Assembly (NCBI GenBank): GCA_013239625.1
Contig: MU053216.1
Coordinates: 1,950,943 to 2,014,942 of the forward strand
Direction: 5' to 3'
Source of the DNA: Lama guanicoe
Lineage: Eukaryota
Length of the DNA: 64,000 nucleotides
Positions 3,415-48,655 of this stretch are shown here, piece by piece. Made by a program: the position numbers and the translations under genes. Every line of letters starts with the position of its first letter. Positions within the stretch are counted from its first letter, which is position 1. The notes beneath the pieces were generated by a model, which was not told the DNA's origin, did no database searches, and saw only the letters and a program-made list of their open reading frames with translations.

Positions 3415-3960
3415 TGTTTTCTTGTTGAAATATAGTCAGTTATGATGTGCCAATTTCTGGTGTCCAGCATAATTTTTCAGTCATCCATGTACATACATAT
3501 ATTCGTTTTCACATTCTTTTTCATTATAGGTGACTACAAGACATTGTATATAGTTCCCTGTGCTATACAGAAGAAATACTTTTTTAAATCTATTTTATAG
3601 ATAGTAGTTAGTATCTGCAAATCTCAAACTCCCAATTTATCCTTTTCTACCCCCTTTCCACCCAGTAACCATAAATATTTGTTTACTATATCTGTGAGTC
3701 TGTTTCTGTTTTATAAATGAGTTCATTAGTGTCCTCTTTTTTCTTTTTTTCTTTAACATTTTTTAATTGAGTTATAGTCATTTTACAATGTTGTATCAAA
3801 TTCTTTTTTCTTTTTAGATTCCACATATGAGTGACATCATATGGTATTTTTCTTTCTCTTTCTGGCTTACTTCACTTAGAATGATGATCTCCAGATCCAT
3901 TCATGTTGCTGCAAGTATCAAGATTTCATTCTTTTTTATGGCTGAGTAGTATTTCATCAT
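3415..3960 (-). mobile_element. Young L1 3'-end fragment, inserted into a MIR
   Basis: Shares diagnostic blocks (tagttccctgtgctatacag; catatggtatttttctttctctttctggcttacttcacttagaatga) with the L1 at 35935-37110, which carries ORF2. MIR-like sequence flanks it at ~3290-3390 and ~3990-4110. Confidence 0.85.
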
Positions 3961-11678: not shown

Positions 11679-11934
11679 GTAAGTGGGGTGTGTGTACAGC
11701 TGCAGATCATGTGTAACTCTGTATGTGGGCGTTCGTTGCAACATAATTGCACACGTCATAATCGACTGAGCTGTCGTTGTCTGAAGAGTCACATGCAGAG
11801 TCTATAATCCCCTTTTCCTCTTTGCTGTTTGCTCTGATTACTGTTGCTTTCGTTTCTCCTCTCGCTTTGCGTTACTAGGTTGAAATAAATGCTGGAATAC
11901 CACATCGGAATGATGATAGTGCTGTGTGGGTCTA

Positions 11935-12322
11935 CGTGAAGGAAGCCAGAAAGAGAAAGAAAAATGCCACATGGCATCATTTATGTGTGAAGTCTGAAAA
12001 ACAGAAGACACAAGCAAACTTGCTTACAAACCAGAAACAGACTCCCAGACATAGAAGACAAACTTATGGTTACTGGGGGGAGACGGGGTGGGAAGGGATA
12101 AATTGGGAGTTCGAGGTCTGAGATACTATCATGTGTAAAATAGATAAACAACAAGTTCCTACCGTAGAGCACAAGGAGTTCTATTCAATATCTTGCAGCC
12201 TCTGTGATGAAAAGAATATGAAAATGAATATACGTATGTCCGTGTGTGACTGAAACGTGATGCGGTGCACCAGACATTGACCCAGCACTGTGAACTGACT
12301 AGACTTAAGGTTTTTTAAAAAA
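11935..12322 (+). mobile_element. Young L1 3'-end fragment, partly GC-shifted
   Basis: Reverse complement of the L1 3'UTR blocks seen elsewhere (agccagaaagagaaagaaaaat...; aattgggagttcgag...), ending in an A-rich tail. Confidence 0.8.
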
Positions 12323-35934: not shown

Positions 35935-37110
35935 TGCTTTCTTTTTCTTTTTTAATTGAAGTTTAGTCAGTTTACAATGCTGTGTCAATTTCTGCTGTCC
36001 AGCATCATGTTTCAGTCATACATACACATAGTCCTTTTCATACTCTTTTTCATTATAGGTGACTACAAGAAATTCAATATAGTTCCCTGTGCCATACAGT
36101 AGAAATGTGTTGTCTATTTTAAATACAGTAGTTAGTATCTGCACATCTCAAACTCCCAGTTTATCCCTTCCCATCCTCTTCCTCCCAGAAACTGTAAGTT
36201 TGTTCTCTATGTCTGTGAGTTTGTTTCTATTTTGTAAAAAGTTCATTTGCATCATTTTTTTTTTAGATTCCACATATGAGTGACATCATATGGTATTTTT
36301 CTTTCTCTTTCTGGCTTACTTCACTTAGAATGATGATCTCCAGATCCATCCATGTTGCTGCAAATGGCATTATTTTATTCTTTTTTATGGCTGAGTAGTA
36401 TTCTATTATATAAATATATCACAACATCTTTATCAGGCCATCTGTTGATGGACATTAGGTTGTTTCTATGTCTTGGCTGTTGTAAATGGCACTGCTGTGA
36501 ACACTGGGGTGCATGTATCTTTTCGAATTAGAGTTCCCTCTGGATATATGCCCAGGAGAGGGACTGCTGGATCATATAGTAAGTCTATTTTCAGGTTTTT
36601 AAGGCATCTCCATACTGTTTTTCAATAAATGGCTAGACCAATTTACATTCCCACCAATAGTGTAGGAGGGCTCCCTTTTCTCCACAGCCTCTCCAGCATT
36701 TATCGTTTATGGACTGCTTAATGATGGCCATTCTGACTGGTGTAAGGTGGTACCTCATTGTAGTTTTGATTTTCATTTCTCTGATCATTAGTGATATTGA
36801 GCACTTTTTCATGTGCCTATTGGCCAATTGTATGTCTTCATTGGAGAATTGCTTGTTTAGGTCTTCTGCCCACTTTTGGATTGGGCTGTTTGTTTTTTGT
36901 TATTACGTTGTGTAAGCTGTTTGTGTATTCTGGAAATTAAGCCCTTGTCAATTGCATCCTTTGCAAACATTTTCTCCCATTCCACAGGTTGTCCTTTTGG
37001 TTGTAGTTTCCTTTGTTGTGCAAAAGCTTGTAAGTTGAATTAGGTCCCATTTGTTTATTTCTGCTTTTATTTCTACTGCCTGGGTAGACTGCCCTAGGAG
37101 AACATTGCTA
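35935..37110 (-). mobile_element. 5'-truncated young L1: ORF2 C-terminus plus 3'UTR
   Basis: ORF 36633-36827(-) [37 protein letters not shown]...[22 protein letters not shown] is the L1 ORF2p C-terminal region; followed by 3'UTR and a T-run. Confidence 0.95.
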
Positions 37111-42220: not shown

Positions 42221-42898
42221 ACACTGAGCCCCGGGAGGTTCCACACAGGTGGCTGCAGAGAGGACGGAGGCGGGCATTTATTGATTCCAGAAGTTGCACA
42301 ATTTTTTCCTTTCATCTAGAAAACTCGTGTTCTGGCCATTTCTTCCCGGGACTCCTGAGGGAGGGAAGTTTTGTAAGAATTATGTTCCACCTTGATTTCT
42401 CACGTGCTGATGCTCTGGAAAGTGGTCGCGGTGACTACCTGGTTCACAGTCTCCACTGAATGAAAAAACAGACAGACAGACAAACTAACAAGCAAAGTAA
42501 AAGCCAGAGAAACCTTTGAACAGCTCACTTTTTTAATTTTAATTTTTTTTTTTAGCTGAAGTGTAGTCAGTTTACAATGTGGTGTCCATTTCTGGTGCGC
42601 AGCATCATGTTTCAGCCACATGTGTACATACGTATATTCTGTTTCATAGTCTTTTCATTATAGGTGACTACAAGATATTGAACATAGTTCCCTGTGCTCT
42701 GCAGTACACACTTGTTTATCTGTTTTATGTATAGTAGTTAGTGTCTGCAAATCTCAAACTCCCAGGTTATCCCCCTCTTCCCCCCAGCGCCGTAATCATA
42801 AGTTTGTTTTCTATGTCTGTGAATCGGCTTCTGTTTGTAAGTAAGTTCATTTGTGTCTTTTTTTTTTAGATTCCACAAATAAGTGATTTCATATGGTA

Positions 42899-43870
42899 TT
42901 TTTTTTTTACATTGTAGAAAATACTGAAATGCAATTTATTTGCCTTATTTACCAAATGGTTAACTACAAAGGTACAATTTTTGCCTTGGAGTTCAAGGCG
43001 GTTTCATTTTTCAGCACAGTTACTTTTCTGATCATGTGCTGTCGTCAGCATCTTCTGTGTCTCCTCAGGATTCAACTGACCGTTCACGTTTTACACGTTT
43101 GTCCACCGGGGAGCCGTACCTTCCTCATGATCGCTGCAGCTCTGTGATACAACACGTCGTTGTCGTCATATGTTTGCGTAGTACCGATCCCGGTTCTGAA
43201 AGTCTCTGTGAGCGTGTCTTGCATACGTCTTGTTATGTGGGATCCTTCCGAAAGGTTCATGGTCATTGAAACAAGACTCAAAAACTTCATCAACAGCCTT
43301 CTGAGCGACTTCTTTGCTGATGTTCCGAACAGCTAGAATAGAAAGAATGGCTCTGTCTCGCACACAGGTCTAAAAAACCAATCTGCCTAGACTCTGCGCC
43401 GAGGGGCCCGAACTCAGCCCCCGCCACCCCTGGGGCCGAACCCAGAGCCCTTGGCCGAGGGGCGCCCAGGCCCCTCCCTGCCCACCCGGTCTCAGACACC
43501 ACCTCCCCAGACGCCCCGCCTCCCGGTCACGGCTCCTACTTGTCTCCAGCGTCTTCAGGAGCATAAGCTGACACTTTTGGTTACTGGTGAAGAAACTGGA
43601 GAGGAACCCTTGCTGGGGCGTCCCCTGAGCCGGCCGCTCGGGGAAGACTCGGCACCCGACGTGTTGCTGCTGCAGCTGCTCCCTCGCCGCAGGGCCCGGC
43701 CCGCGCTCATCTGGAGCTCCTGCCATGCCGCCCGCGGACCTTGCCGCTGCTTCCTCTCGCGTCGGGGGGCTGGGAGTGAAACAGGGAAGGTAACCTCCCT
43801 CCAGCCTACCCTCTGCCCATGCCTCCCCTCCGCCGGGCCGACCTGGCGCCAAGGACGTACGGCCGGAAGC
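42899..43870 (-). pseudogene. ATP23: Processed retrocopy of ATP23 (XRCC6BP1; mitochondrial metalloprotease/ATP-synthase chaperone) with aberrant exon structure
   Basis: ATG at 43726 gives MAGAPDERGPGPAAREQLQQQHVGCRVFPERPAQGTPQQGFLSSFFTSNQKCQLMLLKTLET (ATP23 N-terminus). 43369-43166 gives [67 protein letters not shown] (ATP23 C-terminus). AATAAA at 42940-42935, A-run at 42908-42899, TSD tcatatggtattttt at 42889 and 43871. The middle of the protein, including HEXXH, is absent. Confidence 0.93.
43370..43726 (-). other. Open 118-aa ORF in the retrocopy: 62 aa of ATP23 N-terminus plus 56 aa read from intron-like sequence
   Basis: ATG in good Kozak context (ggcggcATGG); open to TAG at 43372-43370. 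No evidence of expression. Confidence 0.3.
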
Positions 43871-44159
43871 TCATATGGTATTTTTTTTTCTCTTTCTGGC
43901 TTATTTTACTTAGTATAACAATCTCCACGTCCATCCATGTTGCTGCAGATGGCATTGGTTTATTATTTTTTATGGCTGGGTAGTATTCCAGTGTGTAAAT
44001 ATCCCACAGCTTCTTCATCCCATCATCTGTCGATGGACGTTTAGGTGCTTCCGTGTCTTGACTGTTGTAAGCAGCACTGCTGTGAACACTGGGGTGCACG
44101 CAGCTTTTCGAGTTAGTTCCTTCTGGAACATGCCCACTTCTGGATACATGCAGCTCACT

Positions 44160-44286
44160 TTTTTTCTTTTGGGGGGTAATTAGGTTTATTTATCTTTTAT
44201 TTACTTTTTAGTGGAGGGACGGGGGGTTGAACCCAGGACCTTGTGCACACTAAGCACGTGCTCTGCCACTGAGCTAGACCCTCCCC
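44160..44286 (-). mobile_element. tRNA-Ala-derived SINE abutting the L1 TSD
   Basis: gggtaattaggttt body and ttgaacccaggaccttgtgcacactaagcacgtgctctgccactgagct head; tcactt on both sides. Confidence 0.85.
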
Positions 44287-44821
44287 TTTCACTTACTTTT
44301 CACTCAAGAACTAACCCTCGGGAACGCTCAGGTTTCAGCTCCCCTTTGGATCGGTGGCTCTGCCGCATCACGGGCTCAGAGAAGATGAAACACCTCCCAC
44401 GAGGGCGGAGATTTTTCCTTGTGTTGTTTTCTTCTGTGTATTTGTATCAGCACCTTCCACAGGGCCTGGCACTTCAAAGGCCCTCAGTAAAATAAATGCC
44501 GGCTGAATCAATTAAAGCTAGAAGGATCTAAAAGGCGTCTTTTTCCAGCCCCTCCATACGATTTTCTCCCTCAGGGTGGGCGATCCCGAGAGCGCTCTGC
44601 TCCACTCACCTGGAGGACGGCTGCATGGACCCCTTTCTCTAGTTTTACTGTAAAAGGGCAAGTGAGCCAGGTGGCCAAGAACGTATCCCTTCTTCATATT
44701 CAAATCATGGGCGGAAACTCAGTGAATCAGGAGCAGTTAGGATGACTGACCTCACGGATGTGAGATTCGTTAGAAATCTCAATCCCTAGCTTTATTTTAA
44801 TCTATATTTGCCTTTTTAACA

Positions 44822-47974: not shown

Positions 47975-48655
47975 TTTTTTAATTGAAGTAGTCAGTTTAC
48001 AGTGTTTTGCTAATTTCTGGTGCACAGCAAAGTGATTCAGTTCTACACACATACATGCGTCTTCATTCTTTTTCATTATGGGCCATTACAAAGTATTGAA
48101 TAGACAGTTCCCTGTGCTGTTCAGTAGGACCTTGTTGTTTATCTGCCTTATATATAGTAGTGTGTCTGCTAATCTCAAACTCCCAGTTTATCCCTCCCCA
48201 GCCCCCTTCCCCTCTGGTAGCCATAAGTTTGTTTTTTGTCTGTGAGCCTGTCTCTGTTTTGTACATAAGTTCATTTGTGTCCTTTTTCTTTTTAGATTAC
48301 ACATATGAGTGACATCATATGGTATTTTTCCTTCTTTTTCTTGCTTCCTTCACTTAGAATGATGATCTCCAGGTCGATCCATGTTGCTGCAAATGGCATT
48401 ATTTCATTCCTTTATGGCTGAGTAGTATTCCATTGTATAAATATACCACAGCTTCTTTATCCAGCCATCTGTTGATGGACACTCAGGTTGCTTCCATGTC
48501 TTGGCTGTTGTAAATAGTGCTGCTATGAACACTGGGTGCATGTGTTATCTTTTCAAATTAGAGTTCCCTCCAGATGTATGTCCAGGAATGGGATGGCTGG
48601 ATCGAAGGGTAGGTGCATTTTCAGTTGTTTTAAGGAATATTCGTACTGTTTTCAT
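47975..48655 (-). mobile_element. Young L1 3' fragment
   Basis: Colinear with 35950-36620. Confidence 0.9.

Follow-up and report, generated by a model that had tools for sequence, protein, structure and literature searches.

Chimeric retrocopies arise by template switching of the LINE reverse transcriptase, and partially processed retrogenes, which keep a whole parental intron, can be functional genes. Processed pseudogenes have also reportedly been treated, by Shemesh et al. in 2006, as records of splice variants. Among human and great-ape retrocopies, those of AGGF1, ASNA1, IL6ST, RPL10, SKA3, and ZNF664 are named in one source as skipping internal exons, and in its treatment of these copies the missing exons are ascribed to rare alternative splicing or to reverse-transcription events (bioRxiv 10.1101/2020.06.07.139212). 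Partially processed retrogenes form a named category in another source, where Soares 1985 (rat preproinsulin I), Baertsch 2008, and Zhang 2014 are cited for it and where template switching in retrocopy formation is also discussed (PMC5470649). As exon-skipping and partially processed retrocopies are thus both in print, the premise of the original prediction for the locus described here, that ordinary processed pseudogenes hold every exon and no intron, is too strong.

The locus is a retrocopy of ATP23 on the minus strand of a 64,000-nucleotide stretch of DNA (the window), and it combines the two described departures, an exon-skipped and a partly processed transcript, in one very young copy. 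Like the exon-skipping human retrocopies, it is of L1 type, with target site duplications (TSDs), a short A-tail, and missing middle exons; unlike them, it has lost all four internal exons and retains 170 nt of intron 1, which means that no annotated donor was used. It shares with partially processed retrogenes the retention of parental intron sequence and a template RNA that was not fully or normally spliced, but only the first 170 nt of the intron are present and the open reading frame (ORF) is truncated, without the protease domain. LINE template-switch chimeras also have an internal junction with short microhomology, whereas here both halves come from one gene, in natural order, with the junction on a canonical splice acceptor: the 5′ untranslated region (UTR), exon 1, the 170-nt block, and the last exon are all ATP23, and no part was found to come from a different RNA. 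The copy is the same in kind as the pseudogenes treated by Shemesh et al., in which a retrocopy fossilizes the isoform that was reverse transcribed, unannotated isoforms included, and is a further instance, from a camelid. In a literature search for ATP23 or XRCC6BP1 with retrocopies, the 15 papers listed included none on ATP23.

Anatomy of the ATP23 retrocopy

Direct reading of the sequence placed the retrocopy at window positions 42908 to 43870 on the minus strand. Its anatomy in the original prediction (5′ UTR, exon 1, block, C terminus, 3′ UTR, AATAAA, A-run, and TSDs) is right to the base for every element. The copy opens with 144 nt of ATP23 5′ UTR (43727 to 43870), identified by direct reading and by homology to other mammals. 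In frame, this UTR is homologous to the genomic sequence that precedes the ATG in other mammals, as captured in read-through ORFs, which pass from exon 1 into intron 1 on short contigs of unspliced sequence. The homology begins at nt 4 of the copy with P0054 or at nt 22 to 28 with P0041, P0016, and P0020; alpaca isoform P0073 has an N-terminal extension (...SPPTREEAAARSAGGMAGAP) that the UTR matches as well.

The coding part of exon 1 (43540 to 43726; 187 nt, or 62 codons plus 1 nt) is translated as MAGAP...KTLET and ends at the conserved donor A/GTAGG. Its translation is identical at 62/62 residues to alpaca ATP23 P0075, which then runs NPYVKLL. In the copy, exon 1 is followed by the 170-nt block (43370 to 43539), which starts GTAGGAG, ends TTTTTTAG, and has a G+C content of 71% with 12 CpG dinucleotides. 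The coding part of the last exon (43166 to 43369; 67 codons plus the stop, translated as TCVRDRA...YYANI) comes next; it matches Pfam Peptidase_M76 (PF09768) at positions 129 to 169 (E = 2.9e-12) and is identical at 67/67 residues to residues 180 to 246 of Camelus ATP23. Alignment with the parental contig C2940 delimits 258 nt of 3′ UTR (42908 to 43165) running to the parental poly(A) site. AATAAA lies at 42940 to 42935, 26 nt ahead of the templated end, and the terminal A-run consists of 10 A residues.

Residues 63 to 179, about 117 codons from exons 2 to 5 with the HELVH zinc site, are missing. Where a processed pseudogene would hold all exons and no intron, exons 2 to 5 are absent here and 170 nt with intron 1 homology are present. 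Exon 1 and the block together (43370 to 43726; 187 plus 170 nt) make up exactly 119 codons, so the last exon stands in its native frame but for the in-frame TAG at the end of the block (43372 to 43370). This TAG closes a 118-codon ORF and abuts the junction with the last exon. A 70-amino-acid ORF in frame +2 crosses the junction, and a search for homologues of it found none. The copy lacks a protease domain and shows no evident function.

Insertion site

A 19-nt TSD, which reads A9 plus TACCATATGA on the minus strand, is found at the 5′ end of the insert (43871 to 43889) and again at its 3′ end (42889 to 42907), with 19/19 identity between the two. At the 3′ end, the A9 merges with the A-run of the insert. 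Of the 10 terminal A residues, 9 are indistinguishable from the TSD, since A9 is how the duplicated target starts, and the copy has no independent poly(A) tail. Its 3′ end nevertheless lies at the parental poly(A) site, since C2940 continues with non-A sequence exactly where the A-run of the copy starts. A target starting with A9 is the usual kind of L1 endonuclease site.

The empty site was recovered from the repeat into which the copy was inserted. The flanks map contiguously onto two other copies of this host repeat in the window (at about 35943 to 36554 and 47975 to 48540), and in both sister copies the flanks overlap by exactly 19 nt; thus, one repeat copy was the original target. The translation of the upstream flank (43890 to 44099, minus strand) matched the C terminus of LINE-1 ORF2p, at residues 1209 to 1267 of 1275 (E = 1.2e-13; phmmer search of PDB chains), making the host element the 3′ end of an L1 ORF2. 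A Pfam search with the host-repeat flank and six neighboring ORFs gave no match; the L1 label rests instead on the match to the PDB sequence. At least eight dispersed copies of the host repeat are present in the window. Target-primed reverse transcription placed the copy in an A/T-rich stretch of an old L1, leaving the 19-nt duplication. It is an L1-type retrocopy, and the pattern of TSDs, poly(A) site, and elements is beyond chance.

Other repeats were also seen around the locus. L1 3′-end copies that are 72 to 85% identical lie at window positions 35943 to 36554, 47975 to 48540, 3417 to 3956, and 11932 to 12309, among others, and next to the upstream flank, at about 44170 to 44290, is a second short repeat with more copies.

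The parental ATP23 gene

A search of the genome's own assembly (2.05 Gb in 55,231 contigs) showed that an intron-bearing ATP23 parent is present in the same genome, split over contigs. Contig C2940 (2.2 kb) carries the end of the last intron (...ctcctctttctccttag) followed by the last exon and 3′ UTR, the acceptor reading ...ctccttag/ACCTGTG. Contigs C1977 (locus L022) and C6319 (locus L023) each carry exon 2 (residues 63 to 78), exon 3 (residues 79 to 105), and exon 4 (residues 106 to 152), with introns between them. Exon 4 encodes HELVH, which the copy lacks, in agreement with the original prediction that the zinc-protease motif would fall in the missing part. The further claim that the template was not canonical mRNA also holds, as the parent has exons 2, 3, and 4 whereas the copy is without them and has 170 nt resembling intron 1. 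Exon 5 (about residues 153 to 179) was absent from the parental contigs examined; that it exists follows from cetacean isoforms in which exon 4 is skipped.

A run of 6,155 N (C6319:9538-15692) starts 1.2 kb upstream of exon 2, at the place expected for exon 1 and its CpG-rich surroundings, and C6319 showed no similarity to the copy in the 23.6 kb that precede exon 2, these N included. In the 2.05-Gb assembly, exon 1 with the 5′ UTR, the whole block, and the last 21 nt of the block each matched the retrocopy alone. When parental exon 1 and the start of intron 1 were sought in metagenome contigs by exact 29-mer, 0 matches were obtained, and when metagenome contigs and genome contigs were scanned for protein patterns, the patterns matched 340 and 79 times, respectively, with 0 confirmed.

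The copy and C2940 are identical at 465/466 positions. The lone mismatch, at copy position 728 (window position 43143) in the 3′ UTR, is A in the copy and G in the parent and falls at a parental CpG. Judged from this single difference and from the 62/62 match of exon 1 to alpaca P0075, the copy is very young and almost undiverged from its parent. The share of the copy's words present in sequencing runs was 0.86 to 0.91 in 14 DNA runs (four organism labels) and 0.36 to 0.56 in RNA runs, figures that are uninformative on the insertion or on an isoform because a genome with only the parent would contain nearly all of the words.

Apparent duplication of ATP23 and other copies

The alpaca ATP23 proteins (P0071 to P0076, P0081, and P0082) form three accession groups that lie on one chromosome and are each marked by private substitutions, and exons 2 to 4 of C1977 and C6319 are 95.5 to 99.1% identical. 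From these three protein groups and two near-identical contigs, ATP23 seems to have been recently duplicated in New World camelids. Exon 1 of the copy agrees with the P0075/P0081 group, and C2940 matches the frame-shifted tail of P0081 (...YHGAAAIMRKVRLPGG).

In the annotated camel and alpaca isoforms P0038, P0081, and P0082 (261 amino acids), the last exon is entered at an alternative internal acceptor (...tctattctag/CTGTTCGG), which corresponds to window position 43332 on the minus strand, 37 nt into the exon; the frame-shifted tail that results passes the normal stop and enters the 3′ UTR. Two older, 5′-truncated copies consisting of ATP23 3′ UTR only were also identified, L004 (C8676:14664465-14664673; 83% identical to the young copy) and L005 (C3050:552138-552377; 80% identical to it). 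L004 runs to the poly(A) site used in the young copy and closes there with a short A-run, and by their sequences both are probably earlier truncated retrocopies.

Origin of the 170-nt block

The block was tested across species against the read-through ORFs. Residues T62-S63-R64, which span the boundary between exon 1 and the block, were invariant in 15/15 aligned read-through ORFs, and all 15 go from KTLET directly into S-R..., as the copy does; this invariance is that of the conserved donor A/GTAGG being read through. For a test of the block only, exon 1 was removed from both sides, and 20 read-through tails were compared with the block by tblastn, using 200 dinucleotide-preserving shuffles as the control. 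It was found that seven of the 20 tails outscored all 200 shuffles, the best at 41.2 bits against a shuffle maximum of 27.7, and that three further tails were equalled by 1 to 5 of the 200. The summed tail score was 420.7, compared with a shuffle maximum of 350.4. The other 10 tails scored no better than shuffles; these were mostly short (13 to 25 amino acids), with four of them longer, at 43 to 71 amino acids (P0017, P0030, P0033, and P0027).

Alignments were spread over the block, some in shifted frames, as indels would give, and ended at block nt 158 (P0005, ...SAQSLGR) and nt 161 (P0041, ...SAQSLDRL), where the copy reads ...SAQSLGRL. Over the last 9 to 12 nt of the block, no homology cleared the shuffle control, an alignment of P0023 that reached nt 169 being equalled by 5/200 shuffles. 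Taken together, the conserved boundary, the tails that beat the shuffles, and the alignments reaching nt 158 to 161 identify the block, by homology across species, as the contiguous 5′ start of intron 1 along nearly its whole length. The resemblance to an ATP23 intron on which the original prediction turned is therefore present, with 7/20 tails beating all shuffles. Past the homologous point, the distant read-through ORFs P0041 and P0023 continue G-I-M-G-A-G. If the camelid parent were collinear with them, GG rather than GT might follow the block, a weak pointer against a GT that is taken from protein only, in a stretch that is variable between species.

The junction with the last exon

Between the end of the block and that of the parental last intron, identity is limited to the final four bases, TTAG (block, TTGGTTTTTTAG; intron, CTTTCTCCTTAG), so the breakpoint can be placed at five positions, an ambiguity of 0 to 4 nt. 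Of the five, the canonical placement, at the very start of the last exon, is the only one with an AG ahead of it, and the junction falls on the first base of this exon as defined by ...ccttag/ACCTGTG in C2940. The end of the block showed no resemblance to the acceptors of exons 2 to 4, and a derivation from the acceptor of exon 2, 3, or 4 was rejected, as there was no match.

Splicing produces a junction that falls precisely on a canonical acceptor, and the position seen here favors splicing. Under splicing, the TTAG identity would be a coincidence, estimated at a few percent; under a polymerase jump or a deletion, it is the position of the junction on the exon boundary that would be coincidental, at an estimated <1%. 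On balance, splicing is thus favored. Of the two models in the original prediction, the one in which the last exon was joined to a predicted cryptic donor at +171 in intron 1 is therefore the favored one, although not proven; the parts of it that stand are the contiguity of the block with intron 1 and the use of the canonical acceptor.

Donors inside intron 1 are known from annotated ATP23 isoforms. In colobus (Piliocolobus X2, P0036; ...TLETSRSHDLEAGVRPN/SAVNK), exon 1 is longer by 13 codons and exon 2 is skipped, and in cetaceans (X1/X3/X5; P0037, P0007, P0010, and P0018) exon 1 is likewise extended, by three codons in P0007 and P0037 (...TLETSRSH/PYVKLL). As in the copy, A/GTAGG is bypassed in these isoforms. 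From the 3 and 13 extra residues, their donors are placed about 9 and 40 nt inside the intron; their partner is exon 2 or 3, with the protease-encoding frame kept, whereas the putative donor of the copy is at +171 and is joined to the last exon. No camelid isoform with a junction of the form seen in the copy was found among 31 + 34 protein matches and 19 cluster members.

Proposed history and its alternatives

We consider it likely that the copy was dead on arrival, having been made by L1 from a mis-spliced ATP23 transcript in a New World-camelid-like genome. The weak exon 1 donor (CAA/GTAGGA) would have been passed over in the template RNA, and a predicted cryptic donor 170 nt into the GC-rich start of intron 1 (...TTTTAG/GT) would have been joined to the last exon, jumping exons 2 to 5. 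The product would have been a polyadenylated RNA of about 960 nt with a 118-codon ORF and its TAG abutting its only exon junction. By the 50- to 55-nt rule, a stop codon that abuts the last junction is not a target of nonsense-mediated decay, so this RNA should have escaped decay and could have persisted, perhaps lasting in germ line cells until it was copied by L1 ORF2p. The copy itself spans the normal 5′ UTR start to the normal poly(A) site and consists of exon 1, 170 nt of intron 1, and the last exon.

The same structure could have been produced during reverse transcription, if L1 ORF2p working on a polyadenylated, incompletely spliced ATP23 RNA had jumped, guided by TTAG, from the boundary of the last intron and exon to position +170 of intron 1 and then continued to the cap. 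A microhomology-guided jump or deletion would leave just such a 4-nt identity at the junction, L1 reverse-transcription events have been named as a possible cause of missing exons (bioRxiv 10.1101/2020.06.07.139212), and the GT at +171 is a prediction, its parental place being occupied by the N run. However, a jump could begin anywhere, and to land 0 to 4 nt from the first base of an exon would be the coincidence estimated above at <1%. A poly(A) RNA that kept both intron 1 and the last intron would also be required, and the copy contains no further rearrangement, inversion, or filler; a template jump is therefore regarded as unlikely. Exactly the same boundary coincidence would be needed if a duplicated ATP23 paralog had undergone a genomic deletion joining intron 1 at +170 to the last exon and its unspliced transcript had then been retrocopied. 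TTAG microhomology would suit an end-joining deletion, and ATP23 looks multicopy in New World camelids, but both the block and its 3′-end 21-mer are single in the 2.05-Gb assembly, where they lie inside the retrocopy, and we hold a rearranged paralog to be highly improbable.

The chances appear slimmer again that the structure reflects later damage to a longer retrocopy that lost its middle after insertion, or a misjoining of reads by the assembler. The parental region is indeed poorly assembled, in small contigs with the 6,155-N run, but the contig that holds the insert is large, the TSDs are intact, and the empty-site geometry is exact. At about 0.2% divergence the copy has had little time for a deletion, which moreover would need to end on an exon boundary and to start in intron sequence that a processed copy does not have. 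The second model of the original prediction, a block made by nested splicing from the 5′ end of intron 1 and 15 to 25 nt of the 3′ end of the last intron, is scarcely credible and did not survive the comparison with C2940. Although the block does end in an acceptor-like T-run plus AG, its last 15 to 25 nt would have to be those of the final acceptor, and only the four nucleotides TTAG match; the last intron of C2940 does not end ...GGTTTTTTAG, and no other parental acceptor examined (exons 2 to 4) matches either. In addition, homology to intron 1 extends to nt 158 to 161 of the block, and no shifted placement of the junction has an AG acceptor.

If a spliced template is accepted, it is possible, although doubtful, that the junction is the fossil of a real and recurrent short ATP23 isoform, in which exon 1 plus 170 nt is joined to exon 6, rather than of a splicing error. 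Such an isoform would come from a recently duplicated camelid paralog with a lineage-specific donor at +171 and would be plentiful in germ cells. With its stop codon directly at the sole junction, it would not be subject to nonsense-mediated decay, and its product would be a 118-residue N-terminal protein that lacks the protease domain.

Implications

The copy leaves knowledge of retrocopy formation and of the role of ATP23 unchanged. It provides a clean, nearly undiverged example of a retrocopy freezing a noncanonical transcript, and it yields a testable prediction, that one of the ATP23 paralogs of camelids has GT at +171 in its intron 1. As the copy differs from its parent at 1/466 positions, L1 mobilized cellular RNAs very recently in this lineage, and the insertion, young and with its empty site exactly defined, could be used as a presence/absence marker in comparing New World camelids.
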